Positions 3,492 through 39,517 of a stretch of 64,000 nucleotides of DNA are shown one piece after another (position 1 is the first letter of the stretch; the number at the start of each line of letters is the position of its first letter). The position numbers were made by a program, and so were the translations under genes. This DNA is from Escherichia phage vB_EcoP_ShWW44, in sequence record PQ900156.1; one strand, given 5' to 3'. Under the pieces are notes generated by a model. The model did no database searches and was not told the origin of the DNA. It was given only the letters and a program-made list of their open reading frames with translations.

Positions 3492-4667
3492 ATGAACCAA
3501 TTTCCTCAGCACACACTTAGTGATGAACAACTCATGCGTGAGTATGACCGTATTCAGGCTCAGGCGTTTCTCGGAGGCAGTGCTGCGTTCTTTGGTTCAT
3601 TACTGTGTAGTCTTAAATTCTCATGGAAACGCGAGGGTTGCCCCACTGCACGTACTGATGGGATAGAACTCCATTTCAATCCAGACTTCTTTATCTGGAT
3701 GTGTCCAGATGCAAGAGAAACAGTGCTTATGCATGAATTATGGCATGTGGCATATCTACATGACATTCGTCGTGGAAGACGTGACCCAGAAGTCTGGAAC
3801 CAGGCATGTGACCACTTCATTAACCTTCAGTTAGAAGAAGATGGCTACAAGTTCACTGGCATTGATAAAGGTATTTGCAAAGACCCTCAATATAAAGGAT
3901 GGGTCGAAGAAGACATCTACGATGACCTGATGAAGAACCCTCAGAAAAGGCAAAAGCCGTCGGGGGGTGCTGGAGCAGGTCTTGCTGGCGACATGAAATC
4001 CCCCACTTCGGGGCAGTCCCAGGGTGCTGTCGTCAACAACGTAGTACGTGCAATGCAGAGCCAGAAGATGGCTGGTGGACAGATGCCCGGTAAGGGTGCT
4101 GGTCGTATGGAAGAGGTTATTACCCAATTCCTTAAACCAGTAGTTCCCTGGCAGGAAGTTCTGATGAACTTCTTTACCGACATTGATGACACCCATTATA
4201 CGTGGGCCAGACCTAATCGTCGTTACACTGACATCTATCTACCTTCCCTGGAAGATGATGAAGGACGTTTACGTCACTTAGCATACTTTGAGGATGTATC
4301 TGGTTCTATTAGTGGTGCTGACTCTCTGCGTTTTAACTCAGAGGTTGCCTACGTTAAGAGCCAGTTCAATCCTAAGAAGATGTCCTTAATTACCTTCGAC
4401 GATATTATCCAAGAAGAGATGGACATCACTGAAGAAGATACTTTCGAAGAAATTAAGATTACAGGTCGTGGTGGTACAAACCTTGAACCAGTACGTGAAT
4501 GGATTATTAAGAATAAGCCAACCGCTGCAATCATATTCTCCGATATGTATGTTCGCCCAATGGAAGAATTGCCATTTGATATCCCTATCATCTGGTGTGT
4601 TCTAAATAATCCTAATGCTACCGTACCTTTTGGGGAGGTAGTTCATATCCCTAAAGGAATGAAATAA
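3492..4667 (+). CDS. VWA-domain protein with N-terminal HExxH metallopeptidase-like domain (partner of the AAA ATPase)
   Basis: HELWHVAYLH motif; start set to first ATG after the ATPase stop (track ORF begins at 3408 inside the ATPase gene). Confidence 0.6.
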   Translation: MNQFPQHTLSDEQLMREYDRIQAQAFLGGSAAFFGSLLCSLKFSWKREGCPTARTDGIELHFNPDFFIWMCPDARETVLMHELWHVAYLHDIRRGRRDPEVWNQACDHFINLQLEEDGYKFTGIDKGICKDPQYKGWVEEDIYDDLMKNPQKRQKPSGGAGAGLAGDMKSPTSGQSQGAVVNNVVRAMQSQKMAGGQMPGKGAGRMEEVITQFLKPVVPWQEVLMNFFTDIDDTHYTWARPNRRYTDIYLPSLEDDEGRLRHLAYFEDVSGSISGADSLRFNSEVAYVKSQFNPKKMSLITFDDIIQEEMDITEEDTFEEIKITGRGGTNLEPVREWIIKNKPTAAIIFSDMYVRPMEELPFDIPIIWCVLNNPNATVPFGEVVHIPKGMK

Positions 4668-5173
4668 TGGTTGTTAATGGTAATTCCCTGTATCGTTCAT
4701 CTCAACTGCTGGATGTCCCAGACCGTAAGGTATCTAAACACGGTGTAAGCTATGGATTGGGGGAAGCTGGTTATGATATTCGCATCAAACAAGATATTAC
4801 CTTCTATCGCTTATTTGGGTTGATTCCAATGGTGAAAGTCGTTGATGGAAATCAAGTATCACGCCATCTCGGTAAGTTCACATTGGCTTCAGCAATTGAG
4901 AAGTTCAACATGTCCCCATCCTGTGTAGCCATCGTTCACGATAAGTCTACTTGGGCAAGACGTGCATTATCTGTATTCAATACCGTAATAGAACCAGGAT
5001 GGAAAGGGTATTTGACTCTTGAACTGGTCTATCATGGTCGTAAGAAATTGCATATCCCGGCTGGTTCTGGGATAGCTCAAGTATTATTTCATCTGGTTCA
5101 GGAACCTGCTAATTACAATGGCAAGTACATGAACCAGGAAAACCAACCAGTAGCTGCAAGAAGCAGTAAATAA
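4667..5173 (+). CDS. dcd: dCTP deaminase / dUTPase-fold protein
   Basis: KSTWARRALSVFNTVIEPGWKGYLTLEL resembles the dCTP deaminase core; TAATG overlap with upstream gene. Confidence 0.6.
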   Translation: MVVNGNSLYRSSQLLDVPDRKVSKHGVSYGLGEAGYDIRIKQDITFYRLFGLIPMVKVVDGNQVSRHLGKFTLASAIEKFNMSPSCVAIVHDKSTWARRALSVFNTVIEPGWKGYLTLELVYHGRKKLHIPAGSGIAQVLFHLVQEPANYNGKYMNQENQPVAARSSK

Positions 5174-13704: not shown

Positions 13705-14083
13705 GAACATTAGTACCCAGATGGGTTGCCATCTGGAAGAAGTAGAAGAAATGCTTCAGACCATTTATCCAAATGGTAGTTACGATGCAGAATTACTGCA
13801 ACGTGCACAAGATGCCATTACAAATCTGGCAAACCATATGAAACGTAATGACGATGCTTATCGCATTGACGCTAGTACCAGTCTGCTGGATTCACTGGCA
13901 GATCAGATTGTTACAGCAACTGGCGTCGGTACTTTCCTTGGGATGAATGTCCCTGGAGCATTGGCTGAAGTCAATCGCTCAAACTATTCTAAGTTTGAAG
14001 ATGGGGAACCTGTCTTCAATGAGAATAAGAAAGTTATGAAAGGGAAAGACTACACTCCCCCGGATTTAACCCCTTACATCTAA
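13622..14083 (+). CDS. MazG-like all-alpha nucleotide pyrophosphohydrolase (start uncertain; may begin at ATG 13721)
   Basis: HLEEVEEM followed by LLDSLAD fits an EExxE...ExxD arrangement; track ORF overlaps the upstream gene by about 80 nt. Confidence 0.4.
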   Translation: MSMTSSSVCTLANTEAWFRKAVPNPTSKNISTQMGCHLEEVEEMLQTIYPNGSYDAELLQRAQDAITNLANHMKRNDDAYRIDASTSLLDSLADQIVTATGVGTFLGMNVPGALAEVNRSNYSKFEDGEPVFNENKKVMKGKDYTPPDLTPYI

Positions 14084-14104
14084 CCCTCTACGGAGGGTTT
14101 TTAC
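14083..14104 (+). terminator. intrinsic terminator
   Basis: AACCCTC-tacg-GAGGGTT followed by TTTT. Confidence 0.6.
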
Positions 14105-14115
14105 TGGAGATTTTA

Positions 14116-15426
14116 ATGTTTTCCAAACCTACCAAAGCCCCACTGAACAAGGGGCAAAAAGCGGTTGCGAAGGAGTTCTTCGACTTCCTGCTCAACCCTA
14201 ATGCTACCGAATTCAATATTAGTGGCCCTGGGGGAACTGGCAAGACATTCCTGATGTCGCACCTCATTGATGACACTATGCCTGCATATATGGAAACTTG
14301 CTCCCTTATGGGAACCAAGCCCCTGTATAACGAAGTTGTTATGACTGCGACCACGAACAAGGCTGCTGAAGTTCTGGCTCAGGCTACTGGACGTCCAACA
14401 TCTACCTATCATTCCTTTCAGGGACTGATTGTTAAGAATGACTTTAAGACTGGTGAGGCTAACGTCGTACCATCTAAATCATTCAATATTAAGAAGAACA
14501 AAATCATCTTCGTAGATGAAGCATCCATGATTGACCGTCAGTTACTTAAGTATGCTCGTGAAGGTACTCACCAGTGTAAGCTGGTATTCGTAGGAGATGC
14601 TTCTCAGCTTCTGCCTGTTAAAGAGAATAAGTCTCCGGTATATGCAGGTAATATCCCAACACACTATCTGACTGAACAGATGCGTACCGATGCACCGGAA
14701 CTCAAAGCATTGCACCAACAATTGCGTGATACGGTGGAAGGTAAGACGGGCTTCCTGCCTATTAAGTGTATTCCAGGCATTATTGACTGGGTACAAGAGG
14801 AAGAGATGGAGAAATTGGTTCTCAGTCACTTCACTCAACCTACTAATAGCCGTATTGTTGCTTATACGAATGACCAGGTTATTAATTACAATAACTACAT
14901 TCGTGAGGCCAACGGATACGTAGGTGAGTACTCCATTGGTGAACAGCTAGTCTCTAACTCTGCTGTTCGTTTAGGTGTGGATAATCGTCTGTCTATCGAA
15001 CAGGATGTAAAACTCATCGACCAGGATAGTAGTACTCGCATGATTAAGGTTACAGGTGACCTGGAACTGGAAGTTCGTGATAGTACTCTGGACCTTGGTT
15101 ATGGTGGTATTGTAAGTGAAGTTCCTGTTCCTACTGACCCAGACTACTTCAACCGTTTGGTTAAGTGGCTTGGTAAAGAGAAGAACTGGGAACCTTACTT
15201 CCGTCTTAAAGAAACCATTCCAGACCTGCGTGCTACTCATGCATGTACTGTCCATAAATCACAAGGCTCTACTTACGACACAATCTTTATTGATGCGAAT
15301 GACCTCTCAAGCTGTCGCCAACCTGATATGGTTGCTCGCCTGCTTTACGTCGGTGTGTCACGTGCCCGTAAGCGAGTAGTGTTCTATGGCAATCTTGCCA
15401 GTAAGTATGGTGGTCTAACTTTCTAA
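14116..15426 (+). CDS. SF1B DNA helicase (Dda/RecD-like)
   Basis: Walker A GPGGTGKT, Walker B IIFVDEASM, C-terminal VHKSQGSTYDTIFID. Confidence 0.8.
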   Translation: MFSKPTKAPLNKGQKAVAKEFFDFLLNPNATEFNISGPGGTGKTFLMSHLIDDTMPAYMETCSLMGTKPLYNEVVMTATTNKAAEVLAQATGRPTSTYHSFQGLIVKNDFKTGEANVVPSKSFNIKKNKIIFVDEASMIDRQLLKYAREGTHQCKLVFVGDASQLLPVKENKSPVYAGNIPTHYLTEQMRTDAPELKALHQQLRDTVEGKTGFLPIKCIPGIIDWVQEEEMEKLVLSHFTQPTNSRIVAYTNDQVINYNNYIREANGYVGEYSIGEQLVSNSAVRLGVDNRLSIEQDVKLIDQDSSTRMIKVTGDLELEVRDSTLDLGYGGIVSEVPVPTDPDYFNRLVKWLGKEKNWEPYFRLKETIPDLRATHACTVHKSQGSTYDTIFIDANDLSSCRQPDMVARLLYVGVSRARKRVVFYGNLASKYGGLTF

Positions 15427-15436
15427 GGGAGGATAT

Positions 15437-15967
15437 ATGCCTCAGATTGGTTCAGCGACTATTGGTCAGGTTGCCAATAGCAGTGAGATAGTCAAACACC
15501 TGTTCTTAGCAGAACTGGTTCGTCTTGATAGTGTGTTAAACGGTATCATTGATAAGAACGACCGTATCAATGGTATAGATGTATCGGCTGGATTCCTTTA
15601 TCAAGGGGAGTTCTATCAGCGTTCTAATGCTGCCAGACCTCCAACCTACGGTGAACGACTAACCCTTAATCCAGAACTATGGCCTGCAATGGACAAGTAT
15701 CTGAAAGCCTCCAGTCGTCTGATTATGGAAGTACACCTTGTGAACCAGACTGTATATCGCCTGGTTCGAGGTTGTATGTCTTATCAGGATGTACGTGATG
15801 CTTTACCTGAATGCCTGGTAGCTCAAGACCAGACTGGTAAGTACAAGGAACTACCACGTACTCGTGAAGCAGCCTGGACACTTGCTGGTGATCCCATGGC
15901 AATAAAACAATATGAGAAGATTCTTCCCTCTATTGAGTATTATGCAGCTTCCCATCTGATTTTCTAA
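15437..15967 (+). CDS. hypothetical protein (176 aa)
   Basis: ORF with GGGAGG RBS. Confidence 0.55.
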   Translation: MPQIGSATIGQVANSSEIVKHLFLAELVRLDSVLNGIIDKNDRINGIDVSAGFLYQGEFYQRSNAARPPTYGERLTLNPELWPAMDKYLKASSRLIMEVHLVNQTVYRLVRGCMSYQDVRDALPECLVAQDQTGKYKELPRTREAAWTLAGDPMAIKQYEKILPSIEYYAASHLIF

Positions 15968-15976
15968 GGTAAAGCT

Positions 15977-18556
15977 ATGCGTTACATCACCTCTCAAGAT
16001 ACGGGTAAGTATCCTATTGCTATCCTCGGTCATCAAATCCGAAGGGAGGAGATAATTAAAACCTACCTGCTGCCTAATGACCTAAGCATGGAAGATTTTA
16101 TCTTCATTGAACTTCATTCTGCCCCAGGTAAAAAGAAGACCCCTGCAAGGGAAATTAAAGAGTTCATACAGCAGGAACTGCAACAAGTACTGGATGATGC
16201 AGAGACTCAATACATAATCTGTACCGATTCTGATTACTTTAAAATACTGACTAAAGAAGCTAAAGCAGAGGCTAACCTCGGCTATGTTTGTGACTCAGTA
16301 TGGGGTAAGCAGAAGGTTATCTATGCACCTAGCTACAGGCAGGTCTTTTATAACCCACCTGTAGTGAAATCCAAGATTGCTCAGGGTATGGATGCATTAC
16401 TTAACCACATACGTGGTCAATATGCTGAACCAGGTCAAGGAATCATTGAGTTTGAAGCCTACCCGGATACCCCAGAAAAGATTAAAGCCTGGTTAGACCA
16501 GTTGCTTGAGATGAATAAGCCTCTGGCTATAGACATTGAAGCATTCGGTTTAAAGCACTATAACGCAGGCATAGGAACAATTACATTCTGTTGGAGTAAG
16601 ACACAAGGCATAGCCTTTAATGTGGACTACGAGCCGATTCCTGGGGCTACTGAAGCACCTTACGGGCGTATCAACAGAAATGATATTGTTCGAAATCTTC
16701 TACGTGAGTTCTTCATTAAGTACACCCAACGGCAGATGTATCACAATATTAGCTATGACGTGTACGTACTCATCTATCAGTTATTCATGGATAACCTGAT
16801 TGATACAGAAGGCTTATTACATGGCATGGAAATCATGCTACGTAACTGGGATTGCACTAAGTTAATCACCTACCTGGCTACTAATAGTTGTGCTGGTAAT
16901 CACCTTAGTCTGAAAGACCAGGCCCAGGAGTATGCTGGTAACTATGCTCAGGATGATATTAAAGACATTCGTCTTATTCCTAATGAGCAACTGTTACGTT
17001 ACAACCTCATTGATGGTTTATGTACGTGGTACACATATGAGAAGCACTGGGATACTCTCGTTGCTGATGACCAATTGGATGTTTACAACAACATCTTTAA
17101 GCCAGCTTGTGAAGATATTATCCAGATGCAGTTAACCGGTATGCCCATGAATATGGATACCGTTAACCAAGTAGCTAAGGAGATGGAAACTGACAGGAAC
17201 CAGGCTCTGAAAACTATTCGCGAGTCCAAGCTCATGAAGAACTTCACCCTGATGCTTCGTCAGGAATGGGTAGATGATAAGAATGCTAAGCTGAAGAAAA
17301 AACAAGTAACGCTTGCTGACTGTGACATCGAGTTTAATCCAAACTCTGGTCCACAACTACAGAAGCTGTTATTTGATTATATTGGCTTACCAGTTCTTGG
17401 TCTTACTAAGAGCAAGCAACCTGCTACTGATGGTGACACCATTAAAACACTGCGTACACATACGCAGAGTGAAGATGTTAAGGAACTGCTCAATGCACTT
17501 ATCGACTATAAGCTCGTGGATAAAATTATCACTTCATTCATCCCGGCTTTCCGTAATGCACAACCTGGGCCAGATGGATGGTACTACCTATTCGGCAACC
17601 TCAATCTGGGGGGAACGGTTTCTGGTAGATTATCTGCCTCCGAGCCAAATCTGCAAACCATTCCGTCTGGCTCCAAATACGCCAAGAAGATTAAAAAATG
17701 CTTCGAAGCACCACCAGGTTGGATCTTTTGTGGGCTGGACTTTGCAAGCCTTGAAGACCGTATCTCAGCTTTAACTACTAAAGACCCACAGAAGCTTAAG
17801 GTATATACCGATGGCTATGATGGTCACAGTCTCCGTGCATATGCTTACTTCGGTGAGCAGATGCCAGACATAGAAGACACGGTAGAATCCATTAACTCCA
17901 TTCAACACAAGTACAAATCATTACGTAGTGACTCGAAGGCTCCAACCTTCTTGCTTACCTATGGTGGTACGTATATGGGCTTAATGAAAAACTGTGGCTT
18001 CTCTGAAGAAAAGGCCAAGACTACAGAGAAACGTTATCACGACCTCTATGTAGTTAGCGACATGTGGGTTCAGGCTAAGCTAGACGAAGCTGCCAAAACT
18101 GGTTATGTTACTGCCGCATTCGGTTTGAGAGTGCGTACTCCTTTACTGGCTCAAGTATTACGTGGGACATGTAAGACTCCGTATGAAGCAGAAGCAGAAG
18201 GCAGAACTGCTGGTAATGCTTTAGGGCAAAGCTGGTGTCTACTGAATAACCGTGCTGGTTCAGAATTTATGCGTAAAGTCAGAGCCAGTGAGTTCAGGTT
18301 AGATATTCGTCCTAGTATTCATATTCACGATGCTCAGTACTTCATGATTCGTGACAACATGGATACCTTGCAATTCACGAACAAGCACTTGGTTGAAGCC
18401 GTTAACTGGCAAGACCATCCTGATATTGCTCATCCAGAAGTTGGTTTGGGTGGGGAACTATCCTTGTTTTACCCAACGTGGGCTAACGAGATTGAAATTC
18501 CAAATCACGCTACCCCAGAAGAAGTTCATCAAATAATTCAAAAGGCATTCGCATGA
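15977..18556 (+). CDS. family-A DNA polymerase
   Basis: Motif A GLDFASLEDR, motif B RSDSKAPTFLLTYGG, motif C IHIHDAQ; 859 aa. Confidence 0.8.
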   Translation: MRYITSQDTGKYPIAILGHQIRREEIIKTYLLPNDLSMEDFIFIELHSAPGKKKTPAREIKEFIQQELQQVLDDAETQYIICTDSDYFKILTKEAKAEANLGYVCDSVWGKQKVIYAPSYRQVFYNPPVVKSKIAQGMDALLNHIRGQYAEPGQGIIEFEAYPDTPEKIKAWLDQLLEMNKPLAIDIEAFGLKHYNAGIGTITFCWSKTQGIAFNVDYEPIPGATEAPYGRINRNDIVRNLLREFFIKYTQRQMYHNISYDVYVLIYQLFMDNLIDTEGLLHGMEIMLRNWDCTKLITYLATNSCAGNHLSLKDQAQEYAGNYAQDDIKDIRLIPNEQLLRYNLIDGLCTWYTYEKHWDTLVADDQLDVYNNIFKPACEDIIQMQLTGMPMNMDTVNQVAKEMETDRNQALKTIRESKLMKNFTLMLRQEWVDDKNAKLKKKQVTLADCDIEFNPNSGPQLQKLLFDYIGLPVLGLTKSKQPATDGDTIKTLRTHTQSEDVKELLNALIDYKLVDKIITSFIPAFRNAQPGPDGWYYLFGNLNLGGTVSGRLSASEPNLQTIPSGSKYAKKIKKCFEAPPGWIFCGLDFASLEDRISALTTKDPQKLKVYTDGYDGHSLRAYAYFGEQMPDIEDTVESINSIQHKYKSLRSDSKAPTFLLTYGGTYMGLMKNCGFSEEKAKTTEKRYHDLYVVSDMWVQAKLDEAAKTGYVTAAFGLRVRTPLLAQVLRGTCKTPYEAEAEGRTAGNALGQSWCLLNNRAGSEFMRKVRASEFRLDIRPSIHIHDAQYFMIRDNMDTLQFTNKHLVEAVNWQDHPDIAHPEVGLGGELSLFYPTWANEIEIPNHATPEEVHQIIQKAFA

Positions 18557-18858
18557 CCAAAAGTACTAAAGAAACTGTTGTCAGAAAATATCATTGGATG
18601 GTAGCAGCACAGGTAGTATTCCAACTTCCTAAAGTGGATGATGGTTCCCTGCTTACCATGAACACAATGTTGCTCACTGATGAACCTTATGTGACCTATA
18701 AAGATTTGGCCCGTGCCAATCACTCTCTGAAGATTAGTCTGGACCAGCGTTTCGATACCTCGGTTGACCTGAAAGACATCGTTTATCTGTCACTCAGCAA
18801 TCTGGGTCTGATGTCTGAACCAGAGTTCCAGGCAAACATGATTCCCAAGGGGGAATAA
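18553..18858 (+). CDS. hypothetical protein (101 aa)
   Basis: ORF; ATGA overlap with DNA polymerase stop. Confidence 0.5.
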   Translation: MTKSTKETVVRKYHWMVAAQVVFQLPKVDDGSLLTMNTMLLTDEPYVTYKDLARANHSLKISLDQRFDTSVDLKDIVYLSLSNLGLMSEPEFQANMIPKGE

Positions 18859-19325
18859 TGACTAAGCTCTCCGGTGGTCTTAATAACTACTATGTAGTTT
18901 CAGTTAAGAATCCCCAACGGAAAGAGCAAGAGCCATATCAAGCAGAGTGTGAGGATATTATCCAAGCACTGGGCATGACCTTCGATGAAGGTTGTGCCTT
19001 TAAAGCTCTGTGGCGAAATGCTGCTGCCCGTATGGGTAATGGTAAACCCGGTAATAGTGCTGTATATGATGCTGAGAAAATGGTTCATTATACGAACCGA
19101 ATTCTAGCTAAGGAGAAGTTAGTAGATGAATTGCCTGCCACAGATACCACTGCTATTGGGAGATGCTGGCATTACCCAGGAAATGGGAAGCCTTATATAA
19201 CAACAAACTTTCAGTTCATTGAGGTAGCCTACAAAGGTGAGCTAGATAATATAGTCAGCTATAACTTCGATGAGGTAGAGGGTATTCGCTGGAACCAGGT
19301 GCATAAATATAGGATTACCTACTAA
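18858..19325 (+). CDS. hypothetical protein (155 aa), possibly DUF3310-like
   Basis: YYVV...AFKALWRNAAARMGNGKPGNSAVYDAEKMVHY resembles the phage DUF3310 pattern (weak, from memory). Confidence 0.45.
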   Translation: MTKLSGGLNNYYVVSVKNPQRKEQEPYQAECEDIIQALGMTFDEGCAFKALWRNAAARMGNGKPGNSAVYDAEKMVHYTNRILAKEKLVDELPATDTTAIGRCWHYPGNGKPYITTNFQFIEVAYKGELDNIVSYNFDEVEGIRWNQVHKYRITY

Positions 19326-20305
19326 TGAAAATAACCAACAATCATGATGTCTCACTGGCTCTGGCTGTATGGCTATTACATGACGAGTATGATTACGTAG
19401 ACAATCCTAAGTATCTGTCTGTTACTACATTGCTTAAGCCCATTAAGCAAATCGTCATGAAACATCGTGTAGATTTAAGTGACCAGTCAATTGATGTTAT
19501 GGATTTTGTCTCCACATCAATGGGTACTGGTTTGCATGACTCTATCGAGAAAGCCTGGAAGCTGGGTCATAAGACTGCATTGAAGAAGTTGGGGTATCCT
19601 CAGCGAGTAATTGATGCAGTAGTCATTAACCCAACCAAAGCAGACTTTGATGCTAACCCTGACCTTATCCCAATCTACATTGAACAGCGTGGAACCAGGG
19701 TAGTTAAGGGTTGGACTATCGGTGGTAAGTTCGACATCGTAACAGAGGGTCTGTTGCAAGACTTTAAGTCCACCTCAACCTATTCCTGGGTTGCTGGTTC
19801 CCGTGATGATGAACACAAGATGCAAGGCAGCTTGTACCGTTGGATTCATAACGACATCATTACCGAGGATGTAATTCGTATTAACTACATCTTCACTGAC
19901 TTCATGAAGCATATGGCTAATAGCAATCCAAACTATCCTGCTAATCGTATTATGCATAAGGATATTCCGTTGCTATCTGTCGATAAGACTGAACGTTGGG
20001 TAGAAGAGAAGATTCACCTCATTGAGAAGTACTGGAATGCCCCTGAAGAGGAAATTCCTGAATGTACTGACGAGGAGTTGTGGCGAACAGAACCACAGTT
20101 CAAATACTTCTCTGATGCTTCTAAGGTAGATGTACCTGGAGCCAGAAGTACCAAAAACTTTGACGATATGGCATCTGCTCGTATCTTCATGGCTGAAAAA
20201 GGTGGCAAGGGTGCTATCAAGGTCGTGGAGGGGCAGGTTAAGCGTTGTCTGTACTGCCCTGTCGCATCCATTTGCAAACAAAGAGAGAGATATTTTCCAT
20301 CATGA
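19325..20305 (+). CDS. PD-(D/E)xK nuclease with C-terminal Cys cluster (RecB/Cas4-like)
   Basis: FDIV...QDFK fits D...(D/E)xK; C-terminal CLYCPVASIC (C-x2-C-x5-C) plus an upstream Cys. Confidence 0.45.
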   Translation: MKITNNHDVSLALAVWLLHDEYDYVDNPKYLSVTTLLKPIKQIVMKHRVDLSDQSIDVMDFVSTSMGTGLHDSIEKAWKLGHKTALKKLGYPQRVIDAVVINPTKADFDANPDLIPIYIEQRGTRVVKGWTIGGKFDIVTEGLLQDFKSTSTYSWVAGSRDDEHKMQGSLYRWIHNDIITEDVIRINYIFTDFMKHMANSNPNYPANRIMHKDIPLLSVDKTERWVEEKIHLIEKYWNAPEEEIPECTDEELWRTEPQFKYFSDASKVDVPGARSTKNFDDMASARIFMAEKGGKGAIKVVEGQVKRCLYCPVASICKQRERYFPS

Positions 20306-22455
20306 GTATTGACCTTACCGGAGTAGTGCATCATCCGGCGATTGAAGAAATCGTAGATGTGCTCTGCAATAAAACCCAGAATAATGACCGGGGATTTTTC
20401 CGTGTCGAAGTAGCCTACTTCTTGGCTAAAATGGCATCCTGCATGGGTGCAACCATCGTAACTAAAGATCGTGGTGACCTGCCGGTAAACATCTACGCTA
20501 TAGCGTTGGCTACATCTGGTTTCGGTAAAGGTCACTCAGTAAATATCATTGAAGACGGGTTCATGACTGGCTTCCGTAAACGCTTTATGGAAGACACCAT
20601 GCCCGTCATTGCAAATGATCGTCTATGGAAGATTGCTAACGAACGCTCTGCACGGCAGGGTACTGACCAGCAGGAAGAGTTTGATAAAGTTGAGGCAGAG
20701 TATAAACGTGCAGGGGCATATCCGTTTACGTTTGACTCAGGTACTCCACCAGCAGTTAAACAACTACGCCATAAACTATTAATGGCTGGATGTGGTTCAA
20801 TCAATCTTCAGATTGATGAAATTGGTTCGAACCTGTTGGCTAACATGGATGTACTAACCTTGTTCCTGGAGTTATATGACCAGGGAAAAGTAAAACAGAA
20901 GCTAACCAAGAATACTGCTGAAAGCGTTCGTGGTGAAGAATTGGATGGCAAAACTCCAACTAACCTGCTGCTGTTTGGTACACCAAGTAAGCTACTGGAT
21001 GGTGGTCAGACTGAAGACCAGTTCTATGGCTTTCTTGATATAGGGTATGCACGTCGCTGTCTGTTTGCCACTGGTCACTTAGACAAAAGAGCACATGCAA
21101 CACTAACCCCGGAAGAAATCTACCGTAACTTGATTAAACAAGATAACGTACAGACCCTTGGTAAGTGGGCTAACCATTTCCATAGTCTGGCTGATCCAAA
21201 CCTGTTTGGTTTTAAGATGGTTGTGGAAGATGCAGTGGGTATTGCTCTGATTGCTTACAAAATTGATTGTGAGAAACAAGCAGAAGCTATGGCTGACCAC
21301 GAAGAAATTCGTAAAGCTGAAATTTCCCACCGTTATTTCAAAGCACTTAAACTGGCAGGAGCACTGGCGTTTGTTGACCAGAGTTCATTCATTGAGATGA
21401 CTCACCTTAAACAAGCAATTCTGCTTGTAGAAGAATCTGGAGCAGCATTCCAGACAATCCTCAATCGTGAGAAGGCTTATGTGAAGCTGGCTAAATACAT
21501 TGCTTCTGTAGGTAAAGAAGTAACTCATGCTGACTTGGTGGAGTCATTGCCTTTCTATAAGAGCGGCAATGCAGCTCGTAATGAGATGATGACTCTTGCT
21601 ACAGCATGGGGATATAAACAGCACATCATCATTAAGAAAACCTTCAATGAAGGTATTGAATTCTTTCGTGGGGAAACTCTGAAAGAGACTGACATCAATG
21701 AGATGATAGTGGCATATAGTGATAGCTTTGCTTATGACTACATTGGTGAACGTGTACCGTTCGACCAGTTGCATGTATTAACCCAAGCTCCCGGTATGCA
21801 TTGGGTAAACCATCACATGAAGAATGGGCATCGTTCTGAAGAGAACGTTATTCCAGGATTTAACATGATTGTTATTGACTGTGATGGAGGAGTACCACTG
21901 CATACGTGCCATGAACTGATGAAGGAATATAAGTTCATGACCTATACCACTAAGCGTCATTCTGATGAAGAGAACCGATTCCGACTGATTATTCCAATGA
22001 ACTATGAGTTACATCTCGATACTGAGGAATACAAAGAGTTCATGAATAACGTTATGTCTTGGCTACCGTTTGAAACGGATGAATCTGCTAACCAACGGGC
22101 CAAGAAGTGGATGTCCTGTGAGACTGGTTCCTATCATTACAATCTTGAAGCAAATCTGCTGGATGTGCGTGACTTTATTCCTCGTACTAGTAAGAACGAG
22201 CAGTTCCAGAACCAGATGAAGGAAGTACAGTCGTTGGATAATCTGGAGCGTTGGTTCGCTAGTCGTATTGCTACCGGTAATCGTAATAATCAAATGATTA
22301 AGTACGCACTGGCATTGGTTGACAGTGGTTGGGACTTTGCTCAAGTACAGCAAGCCGTCCACTCATTCAATAAGAAACTGGCTAATCCATTACCAGATGA
22401 TGAATTGAATGCAACCGTAATGGTCACCGTGGCTAAACGCTTCGCTGGCAAGTAA
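20302..22455 (+). CDS. DNA primase (prim-pol-like core with PriCT-like C-terminus)
   Basis: NMIVIDCDGG DxD motif; C-terminal helical region resembling PriCT; start set to ATG 20302 after upstream stop. Confidence 0.5.
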   Translation: MSIDLTGVVHHPAIEEIVDVLCNKTQNNDRGFFRVEVAYFLAKMASCMGATIVTKDRGDLPVNIYAIALATSGFGKGHSVNIIEDGFMTGFRKRFMEDTMPVIANDRLWKIANERSARQGTDQQEEFDKVEAEYKRAGAYPFTFDSGTPPAVKQLRHKLLMAGCGSINLQIDEIGSNLLANMDVLTLFLELYDQGKVKQKLTKNTAESVRGEELDGKTPTNLLLFGTPSKLLDGGQTEDQFYGFLDIGYARRCLFATGHLDKRAHATLTPEEIYRNLIKQDNVQTLGKWANHFHSLADPNLFGFKMVVEDAVGIALIAYKIDCEKQAEAMADHEEIRKAEISHRYFKALKLAGALAFVDQSSFIEMTHLKQAILLVEESGAAFQTILNREKAYVKLAKYIASVGKEVTHADLVESLPFYKSGNAARNEMMTLATAWGYKQHIIIKKTFNEGIEFFRGETLKETDINEMIVAYSDSFAYDYIGERVPFDQLHVLTQAPGMHWVNHHMKNGHRSEENVIPGFNMIVIDCDGGVPLHTCHELMKEYKFMTYTTKRHSDEENRFRLIIPMNYELHLDTEEYKEFMNNVMSWLPFETDESANQRAKKWMSCETGSYHYNLEANLLDVRDFIPRTSKNEQFQNQMKEVQSLDNLERWFASRIATGNRNNQMIKYALALVDSGWDFAQVQQAVHSFNKKLANPLPDDELNATVMVTVAKRFAGK

Positions 22456-22456
22456 G

Positions 22457-22491
22457 CAAACAGGAGTCTTTCTTTGGTTTGAAGGACTCCT
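22457..22491 (+). other. 10-bp stem-loop downstream of primase gene, no T-tract
   Basis: AGGAGTCTTTC/GAAGGACTCC-type stem with 8-nt loop; not followed by a U-run, so terminator function is doubtful. Confidence 0.3.
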
Positions 22492-22511
22492 AAATTAAAT
22501 GAGGAAAAATA

Positions 22512-23264
22512 ATGTCCGAAGTAATTCCCAATGATATGAACACTCAGCTAATCCTGATTGCAGGATTCTCAGCGAGTGGTAAATCAGCATCACTGCGTAA
22601 CATCCGGAACCAGGAACGCTGGCTCTATCTGAATACTGAAGCAGGTAAACGTCTGCCTTTCCGTAATAAGTTCAATACCTACAACATTGAAGACCCATAC
22701 CAAATCTGGGAAGCATTTGATGTTGCATCTCCTGGTGGAGAAATGGCAGATGATGTTGATGGTATCATCATTGACTCAGCAACCTTTATGATGGATATGC
22801 TGGAATCTCAGTATGTACTGCCTTCTGCAAACACACAAAAGGCATGGGGTGACTTTGCACAGTTCTTTAAGATACTGCTGCAACAGAAAGTCGTTAAGTT
22901 TGGTAAGCCAGTGATTATTACTGCTCATGCTAAAGACGAACTGGATGAAGCTGCTGGTGTGATGAAAACGTTCATCCCAGTGAAAGGCTCTCTGAAGAAT
23001 AACGGGCTTGAAGCCTACTTCTCTACTGTGGTTTACGCAGAACGTGTAGACATCAAAGAACTGGAGAAGTATGGGAACAAGATGTTAGAAATTACGGAAG
23101 AGGAACGTGACTTAGGATATAAGCACGTATTCCAGACCCGTCCAACTAAGAAGTCGGTTGGTAAACGACTTCGTTCCCCAATGGGTATGTTCGATAAGTC
23201 CGAGACTTACATTGATAACGATGCCCAGAAACTCTTAGACCATCTGGCTGAATACTACGCTTAA
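22512..23264 (+). CDS. RecA-like NTPase (AAA_24/Sak4-like)
   Basis: Walker A GFSASGKSAS, Walker B-like GIIIDSA; 250 aa. Confidence 0.5.
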   Translation: MSEVIPNDMNTQLILIAGFSASGKSASLRNIRNQERWLYLNTEAGKRLPFRNKFNTYNIEDPYQIWEAFDVASPGGEMADDVDGIIIDSATFMMDMLESQYVLPSANTQKAWGDFAQFFKILLQQKVVKFGKPVIITAHAKDELDEAAGVMKTFIPVKGSLKNNGLEAYFSTVVYAERVDIKELEKYGNKMLEITEEERDLGYKHVFQTRPTKKSVGKRLRSPMGMFDKSETYIDNDAQKLLDHLAEYYA

Positions 23265-23303
23265 GCGTTTGCCTGGTTGTTAATCACTTATTAGGAAAAT
23301 CAT

Positions 23304-24107
23304 ATGTCATTGTTCAGTAATCTGAAAGAAAAAACCAAAAACGTTGAAGCTGTTAAAGACTCCCTGGGTGGTGGTGGCTTCGGTGCAAAAGAGTCCGATA
23401 TCTACACTGGTACTGTAAAAGTAGCTTACGTAGGCAAAGCTGACTCTGGTGCAGACTGGATGCAGTTAATCATCGAAGACCTGAAGAACTCAGATAGCGT
23501 ACCTGCCGGTGAGTTCCGTGCTCAGGTGTACTTCACTTCTGGTAATGCTAAAGGTAACAAGCCGACTTACGAGAAGAACGGTAAAGAATACTTCCTGCCT
23601 GGCTACACTGTCATTAATGACATGATGCTGATGGCTACTGGTACTGAACTGCCTGAAGCAGACTTCGAAGAGAAGATTGTTAAAGTCTACGATTTCGATG
23701 CTAAAGCAGAAGTTAATAAGTCTGTCATGGTTCCAGTTGAACTGGTTGGGCAGACTGTTACCTTCGCTCTGGAAAAGGTTCTGGAATCCAAGCAGGTTAA
23801 GGGTGACAACGGTTACGTTGATTCCGGTGAAACTCGTGAAGTAAACGAGATTCAGAAAGTGTTTCACCCGGAACTGCTGGTCACAGTCGTCGAGGCTCAG
23901 GAAGCAGAGAAGGCTGAGAAAGAACTGACCCCAGAACTGGCTGTATTCTATGCAGCATGGTTAGAGAAGAACAAAGGCAAGACTCGTGATAAGACCAAGG
24001 GTTCTGCTGGTGGTAATGGTAAAGGTGGCTTACCTCCTAAACCAGGTGCAGGTGCTGGCACGGGTACTGCTCCTGCTGGTGGTAAATCACTGTTCGGTAA
24101 ACGTTAA
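23304..24107 (+). CDS. single-stranded DNA-binding protein (N4 gp45-like by size and position)
   Basis: 267 aa, Gly-rich C-terminal tail; sits after primase and ATPase as in N4. Confidence 0.45.
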   Translation: MSLFSNLKEKTKNVEAVKDSLGGGGFGAKESDIYTGTVKVAYVGKADSGADWMQLIIEDLKNSDSVPAGEFRAQVYFTSGNAKGNKPTYEKNGKEYFLPGYTVINDMMLMATGTELPEADFEEKIVKVYDFDAKAEVNKSVMVPVELVGQTVTFALEKVLESKQVKGDNGYVDSGETREVNEIQKVFHPELLVTVVEAQEAEKAEKELTPELAVFYAAWLEKNKGKTRDKTKGSAGGNGKGGLPPKPGAGAGTGTAPAGGKSLFGKR

Positions 24108-24661
24108 TGAAAATCCCAATTGTCGGTGCAGACATTAGTCTCCGCAATTGGGGTTTAGCTCGTGGGATGCTGGACATTGAGTCCGGCGTCTTTGAGCAGG
24201 TCGAACTTAAGCTGGTTCAAACTGGAGTTGACCACAACAAACAAGTTCGAACCAACTCCAAAGATATACAAGCCGCTCACGATTTGTTTCTTGGTTGTGA
24301 GGAATGGATACGATCTGCTAAAGCAGTATTCGTAGAAGTACCGGTAGGCTCTCAGTCTGCTAACGGTATGAAATCCTACGGTGTATGCGTAGGATTAATA
24401 GGTGCATTTCGTGCATTGGGTTGTCCAATCTTTGAAGTATCCCCAATTGAAAACAAACTTGCACTGGTAGGTGATAAAACTGCAGCCAAGGACACGATGA
24501 TTCGTGCTGCTCATGCCATCTATCCTGAAGCCAACTGGCTCACTGATAAGAAAGGCAAACTTCTGAATAAGAATGAGCACTTAGCTGATGCAATCGGTGC
24601 AATCCATGCTGGTGTAAATCTCCCAGCTTTCCAGAACCTTATTAAGTTATTAAAGGCGTAA
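24107..24661 (+). CDS. RuvC-like Holliday junction resolvase
   Basis: N-terminal MKIPIVGADISLRNWGLA resembles the RuvC/YqgF first-strand Asp motif. Confidence 0.45.
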   Translation: MKIPIVGADISLRNWGLARGMLDIESGVFEQVELKLVQTGVDHNKQVRTNSKDIQAAHDLFLGCEEWIRSAKAVFVEVPVGSQSANGMKSYGVCVGLIGAFRALGCPIFEVSPIENKLALVGDKTAAKDTMIRAAHAIYPEANWLTDKKGKLLNKNEHLADAIGAIHAGVNLPAFQNLIKLLKA

Positions 24662-24662
24662 T

Positions 24663-25106
24663 ATGCAAATCATTTTGAACCAGTCCGAAGTAGAAGCTGC
24701 TGTACAGGCTTATGTAGATGATCAAATCAATCTTGCTGGTGACATTAATATTGTCATCAATGCAGATGGTACTGCCTCTGTTGGTATCAACGAAGAGGTA
24801 AGTCACGAAGATGACTCCCCACCCGTGGTAGAGAAGAAAACTCGTCGTTCTCGTAAGAACCCACAAGAAGCTAAACACCGTCCGGTAGAACCAGAGCCGG
24901 AAGAAGTAGTTGGAGAGCTAAAGGTGGAAGAAACCCAGACCTCTACTGGTGGTCCGAACGAGAGTTCTACGCCGGAACCTGAAGAAGAAGCAGTAGCTGA
25001 ACCAGAAGCACAAGAAGAAGTTGTGCAGGAAGAGGTTAAGGCTGAAGAACCGGCAGAGAAACCTGCTACTAAGCCTTCACTGTTCGCTGGCCTAAAACGT
25101 AGTTAA
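24663..25106 (+). CDS. highly acidic, low-complexity protein (147 aa)
   Basis: Glu/Pro-rich repeats (PEPEE, EEVVQEEV). Confidence 0.55.
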   Translation: MQIILNQSEVEAAVQAYVDDQINLAGDINIVINADGTASVGINEEVSHEDDSPPVVEKKTRRSRKNPQEAKHRPVEPEPEEVVGELKVEETQTSTGGPNESSTPEPEEEAVAEPEAQEEVVQEEVKAEEPAEKPATKPSLFAGLKRS

Positions 25107-25907: not shown

Positions 25908-25977
25908 GGTCGGGGTAGCACGTAGGCATGTGCAGAAGGTCGCTACTTCTCTCGCTGGTTCGAATCCAGCCCCTGAC
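25908..25977 (+). tRNA. probable tRNA (isotype unresolved; anticodon loop read as GTCGCTA)
   Basis: 7-bp acceptor stem GTCGGGG/CCCTGAC, D-stem GCAC/GTGC with GG in loop, perfect stem AGAAG/CTTCT, T-arm GCTGG-TTCGAAT-CCAGC; TATAAT element just upstream; variable loop only 3 nt. Confidence 0.45.
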
Positions 25978-26433
25978 CTACTGACATCCTATCAATGAGT
26001 ACATTAGGCTAACGTGCGGAGGTTTACACTGTAGCCGGTGTAGGTGGAGAAGACGGCAGGGTAGCTACCTGTGCTTAGTGTACTCTTTGATAGTTTTCGT
26101 AAGCGATTATGCGGTTTTTTAGAAATGAACCAATAACATAAATGCAAACGATGATGTTGTTCTGATGGCGGCGTAATAGCCTGTAAGTCAGCAAGGTCTT
26201 CCTATTCCTTGTAAATAAATTCGGCGCAGTGGCCCGCTGTAATTAATAATGGGCACACAACAGGTAAGAGCATTGGGTAATGTCAGCCTTGGTTCGAAGT
26301 CGAAAGACATGCGGTAATACCCAGCCAAAGTTCCAGTGCTCTTTCCGTTGTGGAAATGCAAGCACAACAAGTCCAGACGATATCTGAGTGACTTTAAAAA
26401 CAGATGGAGCCAGGTGGAATCCCTGGCAATCTA

Positions 26434-28660: not shown

Positions 28661-31600
28661 TTAGTTAGTAAGATTGAGCCAAGGGTTCAGGTTATGGGCA
28701 CGCAAGCCTTGACCAAAACCGAAGGAGTAACCGAGGTTGCCCTGTGCAGCAATACTAAAGATGTTGTCCTGAATAGGCAAACCAACATTACCAAACATGG
28801 TAGGGGTTGGTGCTAACATAGCCATAGCAGCATGTACTGGGTTATTACGAATCATGGACACTGCAACTTTTGCAGAACGAATCTTAAAGTTGTAGAACCA
28901 CATCAGACCAACACTTTCCATATATCCACGGAAGCGACCAGGTAAACGGTCATAGTTAATGAACTCTTCTGTTACACGTCCCAGTGCCTCTTCACGAGTC
29001 TTACCTTTACGCTGAGTCAGTTCATCATAGATGATTGCTTTAGCAATAAAGTCAGAGTACTCAACTGTCTTCTGGATACCCTGGAAGAGAGCAGTATCCT
29101 TAGGGATAAGTGCATAACGACCTGCGTTACGTACAGACTTAGGCAGCTTATCAGCCAGCTTATCCATGTACTCGTGAAGTTTACCTTCAGTAATCAGGAT
29201 GTCATCACGTCCAATACCTGCGTCTGCAATTGAGGAGAACTCGCCAGCTTCCAGCAGAGGCCAGATACTTAAACGCTTATGGCTATCCGTGATGGACTGA
29301 ATCTCGGCCTTCAGCTTACGAATCTGGTTCGGGTTAGTAGCTGCACGTAATTCTGCTTCTGCATCTACCTGACGCAGACGAGATTTCAGGTACTGGTTAA
29401 TCTCAGCAGTCTTCTGTGGAATGCTCTTAGCAATGTTCTTAACAGGCACACCACGAGCAACCATCTGGTAAAGGTTAGCCAGGAAGTTAACAGCAGGTAC
29501 AACTACTGACTTAACCACAATCAGAGTCTTAGCTTCTTTAACTAAGTTCTGAACCAGGTTCTCACCACCCATTACATACTTATAGGCACGGTTACCAAAT
29601 ACACCCATCATAGCTTTCTTGAAGGTATCCAGTGTTTCTGGGGACCAGCGAGAATTACCAGACCAGGCATCACCAACAGAAGCTGCACGATAACCCAGAG
29701 CATCATTGAGCATGTCACGACGTACCCACAACTCACCTGGGCCAAACAGACTTTCTGCTTTCTGACGAGTTTCACTGTTCATCAGTTTAAGAGCATCAGC
29801 AGTCACTGGGTCCAGTTTAGAACCAAGAAGGTTAACGTACTGGGACTTATTAGATGCAGACATCTTAATGTCGTTCTCATACATGCTATGCAGGTTCTCA
29901 ATCAGCATATCGTTGAAACGCTGAGCCTTAGCTTCTTCCACCTGGCGACCACGCCATACACCGATTGCACGAGCAAGATGGTTCTCACCCTCAATATGCT
30001 TCAGCATGTTAGGGTCAATAGATTGCTCATAAGCAACTACATTACCATTGGCATCATATACAGGCAGCAGTGGTTCATTGCCACGTTCACCACGAGCCTG
30101 TGCTTTAGTGATACGGTCTACGGAAGGCTTGTCAGTAATACGACCAGCTACCATGGTTCCCATCGTAAAGCCTGTACCAAGGTCTACACCACCAGCAGTA
30201 TTTCGAACGTTCTGCAGGATACCTTGTGAGAACGGAGCCTGTGCCTGTACTGGTGCAAAGTAGTAGCTACGTGCTGGTCCACGGTTAGCAGAGCTACCTT
30301 GATATGTACCCAGACGTACATAGGATTTCTCAATCAAATCAGCAAACTGACTATCTTCAGCAACAATCAGGTTAACACCTTGCTTGCTATCACTAGGTAT
30401 ATATCCTTTGTACTGGTTCAAGGTTGCACGACTATCAGACTTAGCTTTAGCCATTTCATCTTTACGCTGACCAACCAGGTAAGAAGTAGCAAAGTCCATG
30501 CCTTCAATTTCTGTCTGAGCCAGTGAAGATAACACCTCACGGTCAGTCTTATTCATTGCTTCCAGTGCATACAGCGTAATGAGTTTATCCAGTTGAGCTA
30601 CATCTACAACGGAACGTGTAGTCTTACGTTCACCCAGTAAACGAGAAATTGCAGTAGCATTACGCAGCAGGTTATTACCAACCGTACCATTAATCATGTA
30701 CTGAGCCAGTTGCTTAGATTTACGATTAATCAGAGGCCAGTTACGTCCAGCTTGTTTCTGCAAATCTGCTTCCAGTTTATTAACCTCACGGTCAACAATC
30801 TTTTGGTCAGTCAGCAGGTCACGGATTTCATCCAGAGACATAGTATCTCGCAGAACAGCTAAGTCAGTTTTACCCATACCAGTATGCATTGCTTTCCACT
30901 CATCATTGGTCAGCTTACGGCTGAACTTAGATGCGATAGTGGTAGGCAAATGTTCACGGAACTGTTGACGGTCAGCCTGTACCTGTGCACGTACTGCTTT
31001 AATCAAATCATATACAGAAGCATTGCTCTTAGTACGTCCGATTATGTCATTAACCAGGTCATGGAAAGGCTGCCATACTTTACCCTGGTTCATTGCAGCC
31101 ATAACACCTTCAGCTACGATTGAACCATTCTTCTCTGTAGCAATAGCAGCTACCAATTGTGCAGCATGAGCAGCACCTTTAACCAATGGGTTCTTGGTAT
31201 TAGCTGCAACTTCACGAGCACCTTCCAAAGCACGGGTAGACAGTACATCAATAGAGTCCACCAGATACTGGTTAGCACGGTCGATAGCATTACCAGTAGG
31301 TGTAGCAACGGAATCATAGAAGGACTCTGCATTAAGACTGGTCTGCATGATTGTCTGAGCCAGTGCATCCATACCTTCCTGTACGTTAGTAGCTTTAGTA
31401 TCACCTGCTACACGAGCATTCAGACTAGCCATTGCAGCAGTACCGATGTTAGTCAGCATTGCGTCAACAGTATTGCCAGATTTCTTATCTGCTTTCATAA
31501 CAGGAATGTCAGCCAGTACCTTACGTACTTCTTCACTTACCATTGCCAGACCAACAAAGGTAGGCAATAAAGAAGAGCGACCCTGTGCATCAAACTCAAT

Positions 31601-34600
31601 GTTGTTAGCACCCATGATGGTATCGAACTTCTGCTGTGCATAGTAACGGTCAGCAGGGTTAGTACTATCTGGGTCAGCCATGAACGATTCAACAGTTAGG
31701 TTCTTAGTAACATGTGTGTAGTATTCCTGTGCACGAGCCATAGCAGCAGGGTTAATAGCAGCCTCAGTAGCCAGTGCAGCAACGATGTTAGTGAAGAGAC
31801 GCTGTTCCTGCATATTCATGGTGAAGCCATGGGCCTGAACATCACGGGTTACTTTGGTTGCATTTACTACTGCATCAGAGAACTTACCTTTACGAATTAC
31901 TTGCTGTACTGGTTCTGAACCAATGTAGTCAGTAATCAGCTTATCAAAGGTCTTACCTAACTCTTCCAGACGAGTATTGTCACCATATGCTTTGTTATGG
32001 AACAGGGTAGTGTCTTTGGCTACAGCAGCAGTAGGAGCTTGTCCACGCATTACTACAGCAGAGTTAAACAGTAGGCCAGAGAACATATCATCTGCATTAG
32101 CCGGAGCTTTCTTACGTCCAAATACCAGACGCTTGATTGCTTCATATACAGCCTGAACCATAGCTTTAAGTGCAGTGGTTTTCTTCTGCTTACCAATCAG
32201 TTCACGGTTGGTTAAACCCCAGGCCATGTACTCATTTAGTGCAGCAGCTTTAGCCATTGCTGGTTCAATAAAGCCATTGGACAGGTGACCGTTAATGGTA
32301 TTGAGTGCATCAGCATATGCTTCACGTACTGCCGGAGATTCATCCTTAACATCCAGAGCACGAAACTGGTTCATCAGGTCTTCAATATTCTGAACTGCTT
32401 CATTAGGAGTACCTTCATAATGAGCCAGTACAGATTCAAAAGTAGAGGCATGTACCAACTCATGAACCAGAGTCTCTAAGGAAGGGGTAACTAAATAGAT
32501 GGTCTTATCTTCAAAGTTAGTCCAGCCGTATGCATTACCAGCTTCAGCAGCTTCAATATCTTCCGGTGCTGGGCGAGTAATATTCTTCTCAATAGCATAG
32601 GCATCCAATTGAGCAGGTGTACCATAAACAACCTTATAGTCTTTAGCAGCGAGAGATTTCTGTATTTCTTTCAGTACTGCTTGCTGTTCAGGAGACATCT
32701 CTTTAGCCAGCTTAGAGATAGCAGTATTAGACAGCAGACGTACACCAGACTTCAGTACACGACCAACCTGTTCCATTGCTGGTACTTCTTTCACTGGTTC
32801 TGCTTTAGTAGCACGTACTGCATCACGACGCTTGTTTAATTCAGCATCAAACAGTTCGTTTAGCTTAGCTACTTGCTGGTCTACAGTAAGACCTTCCAGA
32901 GAGATTTTACCGTTGTTCACATAAGGAGCACCAACAGCAGCCATCTGGTCAACGGTGACTTGTACCTGGTCCATTACCTTGTGACGAATATCTACACCCA
33001 AAGCAATGTTACGCAGATTGCGTTCAATTAATGCAATACCAGAATCTTTAATCATAGAAATTTTATAATCTCTATCACCATCTACTCTGGTAATCTGAGC
33101 ACGCTGGTCATACTCCAGAGCAGATTTAGCGATAGCCTGTTTGGTTTCATCAGACAGTTTGCTGAAATCTACGTTCTTATGAAACTTAGCAAAGGAGTCA
33201 TAAACATTCTTGATAGGATTACCCTGCCAGGAAGTATATACAGCCTCATTAGCTTTACGACTTGCGTCAGTGATGTCATTGATACCAATGTTCATACCAT
33301 CAAAGATTTTCAGGGTATTCTTCGGAGCACCTTTCATAGTAGAAAGGGTCTGCATCATCATGCCATCACCAGTACCGATGGTCATAAACGGAATACCTGC
33401 AACACCTGCCTGTGAAGGAGCATAGATGCTCATTGGCACACGCATACGGTCATCTAAGTTGGTAGCCAATACTTGGTTAGCAACATCAGTATTCTCGCTA
33501 CCAGCAATGTAGAAAGTCTGGGAACCAGTCTCAATCATTGGAGCCAGTGGAGATAAGTGATTCTGAATTTCATTCAGTTCTTTCTGAGTTAAGAAATCAC
33601 CTTTCTTCCATGTTGGGTCTTTTTCTTTTTCTGCCAGTTTAGCCTGTACTGCCTGTTGGAACATATCCTGCAATACCAGTGATTGAATCTGAGTAGCCTT
33701 CTGCAAATTTTCAGTAGAGTACATCAGACCTTCACCAACAGTATTTCGGATACCATGTCGCATTGGCTCAACGAACAAGTGAAGCATGTTCTCTTGTAAG
33801 TTCTTCAGAGCATTACCGGATACAGTAAACTTCTGAGGGTCTAATTTACCGGTCAGAGCACCTTCTACCTGCTGAATAGACAACTCACCTTTACGCATAA
33901 CTGGAACATTGCCAGTTAGTGCTTCCATAGAAGTAAGGAAAGTATCCAGCATAGCCTGAGCATCGGCCTCAGACGCAGCCTCCTTACCAAACATAGCCAT
34001 AGCCGGGGAAATGCTAGGGTCAGCAGCACGGGCTTGCAGAACGTCACTGAAGCGTTCATAGATGGTATCAGTAATTGCACTAACCATTTTGCCAGCAATA
34101 CCACGAGCACCTGAACCATAAATGGTAATGGTCAGTGGGTTTTTAGCGATACCGCGTTTCAGGTCCAGAGTACCATCTTCCTTAAGATTGAAGTCTTTAA
34201 TGAATAGGTCCATTAACTTCTGGAGATGCTTCATCTGGTTCGTAACAGGAACGTTGTTACGATAAGTATTACGCAATTCATTCAGATGCCTTTGTAGACT
34301 ATTAGTGGATGCTTCATACAGGTCAACGCTGTCCTCATGCGAATGATGCTCGTTCATAGTCTTGCCAGCTTTACCGAAGAACAAGCCACCTTTAGCAGTA
34401 TTCTTAATCCAGTCTGGAGTGAACTTACCACCCGTCATTAATACCATTGCGTTGATTGGTCCGTTGGTTACACCATCAGCTTCAACGTACAGTGGGGTAT
34501 TAAAGTTGGCACGGTCATCACTGTTAAGATAACAGGCATACTCCATCAGAGCCATGAGAGCTACAAATGATTTATCATTACCCAAAGGGGTCTTCAGAAT

Positions 34601-39448: not shown

Positions 39449-39517
39449 AGCAAGATTCCTGTTCAAACTTATATCGTATAAGAAGATTCACTGTACAGTA
39501 AGTGAATGTAAGAGAAA

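Follow-up and report, generated by a model that had tools for sequence, protein, structure and literature searches.

A conserved predicted RecB/Cas4-fold exonuclease with a C-terminal cysteine module beside the primase gene of an N4-like Escherichia phage

We analysed a stretch of 64,000 nucleotides from Escherichia phage vB_EcoP_ShWW44 (sequence record PQ900156.1; hereafter the window) and in it the gene at 19325..20305 (+), which encodes a gp42-type exonuclease, a predicted PD-(D/E)XK nuclease of the RecB/Cas4 fold. An earlier note made from the DNA letters had placed a nuclease gene here, and the listing of open reading frames (ORFs) gives exactly the same coordinates, with an ATG start, 326 amino acids (aa) and a TGA stop that is included in the end position. 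The upstream gene, in the position of gp41, occupies 18858..19325 (+) in the ORF listing and encodes 155 aa. Its stop overlaps the start codon of the exonuclease gene (TAATG). On the other side lies the gene for the DNA primase (gp43 or 'DNS protein'; 20302..22455, +), recognised by Pfam PriCT_1 (E 9e-7), by PHROG 2135 'DNA primase' (E = 0) and by the annotation of the related Escherichia phage St11Ph5, so the gene indeed stands beside the primase, as the note had said. The sequence read shows that the primase ATG at 20302 overlaps the TGA stop of the exonuclease gene (ATGA), and with the two overlaps the gp41-position ORF, the exonuclease and the primase are tightly packed head to tail. A TTG-started ORF at 20245..22455 was considered as the start of the primase and rejected, as the ATG at 20302 fits both the St11Ph5 record and the ATGA overlap.

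Further downstream, three genes for recombination and single-strand handling follow on the same strand. These are a Sak4-like single-stranded DNA annealing protein (gp44; 22512..23264, +; PHROG 124, E 1.2e-49, and Pfam AAA_24), an N4-type single-stranded DNA-binding protein (SSB; gp45; 23304..24107, +; PHROG 743, E 2e-89) and a RuvC-like Holliday junction resolvase (gp46; 24107..24661, +; PHROG 159, E 1.8e-41, and the St11Ph5 annotation). The local gene order is that of N4, running from the Dda-like helicase (gp37) through gp38, the DNA polymerase (gp39), gp40, gp41 and gp42 to the primase and continuing, again as in N4, with gp44, gp45 and gp46; around gp42 it is identical in N4 and St11Ph5. 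The gp44 protein also has a weak NCBIfam match to the P-loop protein BrxF of BREX-3 (bacteriophage exclusion type 3), with E 0.002 and 17.9 bits against a cutoff of 50. This match is confined to the Walker A region and is probably generic P-loop similarity.

The 11-kb stretch around the gene shares 95% DNA identity with St11Ph5 and other G7C-like phages, and on this similarity the window belongs to Gamaleyavirus (G7C/N4-like, Schitoviridae). The exonuclease protein is 100% identical to gp42 of St11Ph5 (YP_010659900.1, 'exonuclease' in RefSeq) and 71% identical to gp42 of N4 (YP_950520.1, annotated 'exonuclease'). Using tblastn, we found a full-length homologue in 471 phage records. With few exceptions these are N4-like podoviruses of 70-78 kb, and their hosts belong to many genera. 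An 'N4 gp42-like protein' is listed among the few orthologues common to all N4-like phages (PMC3853248), and gp42 is an ordinary, conserved core gene of Schitoviridae. The function of gp42 was given as 'unknown' in 2009 (PMC2784036). The gene is by now already known, being labelled 'exonuclease' or 'PD-(D/E)XK nuclease' in RefSeq, UniRef and PHROGs, and the family owes its name to homology only. In the literature, N4 gp42 or an N4 exonuclease is met only in mentions within genome annotations. A phage-coded 5'→3' exonuclease was reportedly counted among the N4 replication functions in the 1980s; we found no literature source that assigns this classical activity to gene 42. In the N4-like Roseophage vB_DshP-R7L, a gp42-like exonuclease and a gp45-like SSB were among the proteins of virion preparations identified by sodium dodecyl sulphate polyacrylamide gel electrophoresis (PMC11934525), and their presence there may be due to packaging or to carry-over.

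Searching 1.84 billion cluster representatives with a profile returned 4,045 relatives at E <= 0.001. The alignment used here, to which the following counts refer, contains the query and 144 of the 150 best representatives, which are 32-53% identical to it (145 sequences in all). G67, H71, E120, G134, D137, D146, K148, Q167, Y171, P205 and C247 are invariant, and R122 is nearly so (144/145). The RecB motif I region (19523..19549, +) comprises G67 and H71 together with E75, which is kept in 141 sequences. The motif II aspartate D137 (19733..19735, +) lies within GKFDIV, and motif III, D146-F-K148 (19760..19768, +), lies within QDFK. The PD-(D/E)xK-like core that had been noticed as FDIV...QDFK is thus located at residues 136-139 and 145-148, with D137, D146 and K148 present in all sequences. 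The segment QGSLY, from Q167 to Y171 (19823..19837, +), matches the RecB-family QhxxY motif, which is critical for Cas4 activity (PMC4176176).

The whole protein contains only four cysteines, C247, C308, C311 and C317, and their columns are the sole conserved cysteine columns in the family. C247 (20063..20065, +), in the sequence PECTDEELW, is a candidate fourth ligand of a metal cluster. The other three form the triad C308-x2-C311-x5-C317 (CLYCPVASIC, residues 308-317; 20246..20275, +), found by a motif script, which matches the canonical C-terminal triad of Cas4 and AddB (PMC4176176). This C-terminal cluster, also pointed out in the earlier note, is kept in 144 of the aligned sequences, with a gap in the remaining one, and in 147 of the 150 representatives, the other three of which look like fragments. 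By itself the cysteine pattern is not rare, as the six-frame translation of the window contains C..C.....C 13 times; what counts is conservation together with the fold. Outside Schitoviridae, four distant relatives at 25-26% identity keep the catalytic residues and the cysteine of 'xCT(D/E)EExW'; they come from Leptospira phage LE4, Pelagibacter phage Baldr, Planktothrix phage Pag-Yong1 and the Methanomicrobiales-associated Caudoviricetes vir555. Their triads are spaced C-x3-C-x5-C or C-x4-C-x5-C, compared with C-x2-C-x5-C in the N4-like phages.

Residues 1-325 of the protein match PHROG 2139 'exonuclease' (E 8.1e-152), and there is a secondary match to the Cas4-like PHROG 1706 (E 2.6e-10). 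Pfam PDDEXK_1 (PF12705, AddB-type) scores 17.5 bits on the query (E 0.0041), which is below its gathering cutoff of 22 bits, and matches 52 of the 145 family members at E <= 0.01, the best at 3.7e-7. The AlphaFold2 model, built from a 20-sequence alignment, is confident (mean predicted local distance difference test score, pLDDT, 86.9; predicted template modelling score 0.75) and has a RecB-like three-dimensional fold. Its best Foldseek match is the Cas4 protein SSO0001 of S. solfataricus (PDB 4ic1), a [4Fe-4S] nuclease, at E 1.4e-7, and Dna2, MGME1 and EXO5 are among its structural neighbours. In BFVD, a library of viral models, an N4-like orthologue comes first, with a template modelling score of 0.88, and the next matches are Cas4-like proteins from archaeal viruses and from uncultured phages. 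On the model, H71 and E75 sit on the helix 67-88, D137 and D146-x-K148 on the strands 130-135/138-140 and 143-150, and Q167 and Y171 on the helix 161-174. The lack of any nuclease-fold match and of conserved catalytic residues, which had been named in advance as grounds against a nuclease, is not what the data show, given the match to 4ic1 and the invariant catalytic residues.

Kinship with Cas4 is apparent only through the fold and through weak Pfam and PHROG profile matches. With a comparison profile of the genuine Cas4 slr7015 of Synechocystis and 30 relatives, plus fragments of 7mi4 and 8d3l, hhalign gave weak local matches (E 0.011-0.014, probability 3-4%). The local profile-profile segments, both weak, lie around the cysteine triad (E 0.014) and motif II (E 0.086). 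Cas4 residues 127-180 were aligned with gp42 residues 261-317, a correspondence that probably does not reflect the true topology.

The Cas4 fold brings to mind a role in counter-defence. In this case gp42 would be a Cas4 that interferes with CRISPR immunity, or else a nuclease that degrades host DNA. Such a role has been reported for phage Cas4-like proteins, and that of Campylobacter phage drives the acquisition of host-derived spacers (PMC4283603, PMC5704561). One homologue of gp42 is moreover annotated 'CRISPR-associated exonuclease, Cas4 family'. However, PF01930 (Cas_Cas4) matched neither the query nor any of the 145 relatives at E <= 0.01, and NCBIfam and PADLOC gave no matches to the query protein, upon which a defence or anti-defence function was dropped. 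The gene is also a core gene with a fixed place in the replication and recombination module across the 471 records and their many host genera, and it is linked to annealases and not to cas genes. We regard a counter-defence or host-degrading function as very improbable.

The layout of the cysteines is less straightforward. Cas4 proteins are defined by the RecB motifs I, II and III, the QhxxY motif and four conserved cysteines; in iron-staple nucleases the fourth cysteine is N-terminal, before the nuclease core, and the cluster works as a staple between the N- and C-terminal parts (PMC4176176). In SSO0001 the cluster cysteines are Cys32, Cys188, Cys191 and Cys197 (PMC4176176). The nuclease motifs and the C-terminal triad of gp42 conform to the canonical layout. 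The segment S32-R48 (LSVTTLLKPIKQIVMKHR; 19418..19468, +) seems to be the counterpart of the N-terminal 'YCPR' helix of Cas4, with K38 in the place of the cysteine. S32, T34, L36 and L45 are nearly invariant here, and the helix reads S32-V-T-T-L-L-K38-P-I-K-Q-I-V-M, where a genuine Cas4 has, for example, L-N-x-x-x-Y-C-P-R-x-x-Y-L. Across the gp42 family this position, 38, is occupied by K, R or Q and never by Cys. The iron-sulphur (Fe-S) RecB/Cas4 arrangement is matched in the nuclease motifs, the triad and the Cas4 fold, but not at the canonical N-terminal cysteine.

In the model, C247 lies about 10 residues past the long helix 219-236. In a Cas4 of ~190 residues, the cysteine triad begins about where C247 falls in gp42, and in gp42 an insertion of ~55 residues intervenes before C308. 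This insertion (residues ~249-306; 20069..20242, +) is modelled as strand-strand-helix-strand with pLDDT 77-92, and canonical Cas4 proteins (~190-200 aa) have no counterpart of it. C247 may substitute for the N-terminal cluster ligand, and by analogy with Cas4 and AddB the four-cysteine module may hold an Fe-S cluster that stabilises the nuclease domain or the binding of DNA ends. Alternatively, the four cysteines could bind a structural Zn2+ in a zinc-ribbon or treble-clef-like module, in which case the nuclease would be otherwise alike and there would be no iron-staple. The missing N-terminal ligand leaves room for zinc; we consider the zinc site unlikely.

A more specific interpretation, which we hold tentatively and at somewhat less than an even chance, is that gp42/PHROG 2139 represents a distinct iron-staple variant. 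Its first ligand would have moved from the N-terminal helix, where position 38 is Lys or Arg, to the post-core cysteine of 'PxCT(D/E)EELW', ~55 residues before the triad, and the protein would be a portable resection module recruited by Sak4, RecT and Erf annealases. With the C-terminal third then supplying all four ligands, the cluster would cease to hold the N- and C-terminal parts together and might instead organise a separate module, for instance for binding DNA ends or a partner. The non-canonical layout, with no N-terminal ligand, an invariant post-core cysteine and an inserted module, goes beyond the existing annotation. If confirmed biochemically, the relocated ligand would add a small but genuine observation on the evolution of the Fe-S 'staple' in RecB-type nucleases.

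The function of the nuclease is suggested mostly by its neighbours. In the window the Sak4-like gene lies two genes downstream of the exonuclease gene, the adjacency expected of a two-component recombinase. The typical partner of a phage annealase is a 5'→3' exonuclease, and such pairs include Sak4 with an exonuclease (PMC2896510, PMC3483164); Sak4 itself is a RecA-core annealase stimulated by its cognate N4/DUF669-type SSB (PMC5928155). We also inspected homologues in four phage lineages outside Schitoviridae in our collection, where the neighbour annotations were confirmed by PHROG scans. In Leptospira phage LE4 (locus L002, 2732-4909; exonuclease homologue at 4001-4909) a RecT/Bet-like annealase is encoded one small ORF upstream. 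In Caudoviricetes vir555 (locus L005, 4001-5612) the gene of an Erf-like annealase overlaps the 3' end of the exonuclease gene, and in Planktothrix phage Pag-Yong1 (locus L004, 3956-6481) an Erf-like protein is encoded two genes downstream. With the N4-like phages included, one exonuclease family thus stands beside three unrelated annealase families (Sak4, RecT and Erf) in four of five lineages. This pairing is a classic signature of two-component recombinases and the strongest reason for believing that gp42 prepares DNA ends for annealing by resection.

We therefore propose that gp42 is a stand-alone, divalent-metal-dependent DNA exonuclease of the RecB/Cas4 fold and that it most likely supplies the exonuclease in an exonuclease/annealase pair for phage recombination, an assignment that we consider reasonably probable. 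The recombination or end-processing exonuclease suggested earlier from the letters finds support in this annealase, SSB and RuvC-like context. The active site would consist of H71/E75 (motif I), D137 (motif II), D146-x-K148 (motif III) and Q167xxxY171, and the cluster-binding module of C247 and C308-x2-C311-x5-C317. The enzyme would resect the ends of double-stranded DNA (dsDNA) 5'→3', the N4-type SSB (gp45) would cover the resulting 3' single strand, the Sak4-like annealase (gp44) would then anneal the covered strand, and the RuvC-like gp46 would resolve the junctions. In this way the system would support concatemer formation and recombination-dependent replication and would repair the phage genome, which is linear and terminally redundant. 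The fold, the conservation of catalytic residues and cysteines, the orthology with N4 gp42 and the gene neighbourhoods are direct observations, whereas the 5'→3' polarity, Fe-S and not Zn, C247 as a ligand and the partnership with gp44 and gp45 are what we infer from them.

Several points weigh against this proposal. No conserved cysteine column precedes residue 247, and without the canonical N-terminal ligand the cluster may be bound in another way, or Zn may occupy the site. The 5'→3' polarity is suggested by relatives only; the Cas4 enzymes that have been characterised carry Fe-S clusters and act as 5'→3' exonucleases, and the Cas4 protein SSO1391 cuts in both directions (PMC4176176). We found no biochemical data for any member of the gp42 family in the searchable literature. 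Sequence searches revealed no relevant solved structure: the single protein gave matches at chance level only, and profiles of 20, 145 and 10 sequences gave nothing relevant. The homologue of Pelagibacter phage Baldr has no recognisable annealase nearby. Finally, in the N4-like phages the exonuclease gene overlaps the primase gene and not the annealase gene, an arrangement equally compatible with a lagging-strand role.

Such a role would make gp42 a replication nuclease like Dna2, MGME1 or EXO5, which clears the lagging strand of RNA primers and 5' flaps and replaces the missing 5'→3' exonuclease domain of the polymerase. The primase overlap fits it, the N4-type polymerase does lack a 5'-3' exonuclease domain (PMC2784036), and all three enzymes are found among the structural neighbours of the model. 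Outside the N4-like phages, however, the gp42 family adjoins annealases and not primases or polymerases, and we consider a replication function in place of recombination rather unlikely. The replication and recombination roles are not mutually exclusive.

The findings matter little beyond annotation. For the existing label 'exonuclease', the analysis adds explicit support at the level of fold and residues. The genes found around it in unrelated phages also argue for gp42 as the resection partner of the Sak4-like/SSB/RuvC-like module. If this is confirmed biochemically, gp42, gp44 and gp45 would form a candidate Sak4-based set for dsDNA recombineering.

Some further observations concern the surroundings of the gene. 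The gp41-position protein matches PHROG 9919 over its full length, and its residues ~1-87 also match the C-terminal ends of longer proteins. One family of these is PHROG 7063 '3'-phosphatase, 5'-polynucleotide kinase', matched at profile positions 229-305 of 316, and in several relatives (phi G17, KP8) a polynucleotide kinase/phosphatase is annotated directly upstream of the exonuclease. The phage of the window seems to retain just a domain that it has in common with these proteins. In the region 14000..25000 the genes of the window are intact. In some close relatives (e.g. Bp4, PBM-2 and UE-S5b) the alignment to this region is split into two or three pieces, and in such phages the annotation divides the DNA polymerase or the primase in two, or places an HNH homing endonuclease next to the exonuclease. 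A single tRNA-Ala gene (anticodon CGC; 25908..25979, +) lies downstream of the replication module, in the same relative place as in St11Ph5. An ORF of 3,601 aa (28661..39466, -) lies where N4 has its virion RNA polymerase (gp50), and near 28 kb, at the switch of the coding strand, the cumulative GC skew changes direction.

Compared with known systems, the gene is closest to gp42 of N4 and St11Ph5 (PHROG 2139), with which it shares the length, the motifs and the position between gp41 and the primase gene gp43. There is no difference of substance, and the gene of the window is a member of this family. From Cas4 (DUF83; SSO0001, PDB 4ic1, and Pcal_0546, PDB 4r5q) it differs in several ways. It has no CRISPR context and no PF01930 match, and its neighbours are phage replication and recombination genes in place of the cas1, cas2 and CRISPR association of Cas4 proper. 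Its length exceeds that of Cas4 by ~120 residues; besides the C-terminal insertion of ~55 aa it has one at residues 89-114, and instead of the N-terminal ligand Cys32 of SSO0001 it has the invariant Cys247 after the core. Unlike the iron-staple domains of AddB, AdnB, Dna2 and EXO5 (PF12705), gp42 stands alone, has no helicase domain and places its first cysteine differently. Lambda Exo (Red-alpha) and RecE, in contrast to gp42, have no cysteine cluster. They are paired with Red-beta and RecT, whereas the nearby annealase in the N4-like phages is Sak4-like, a RecA-core ATPase, accompanied by the N4-type SSB.
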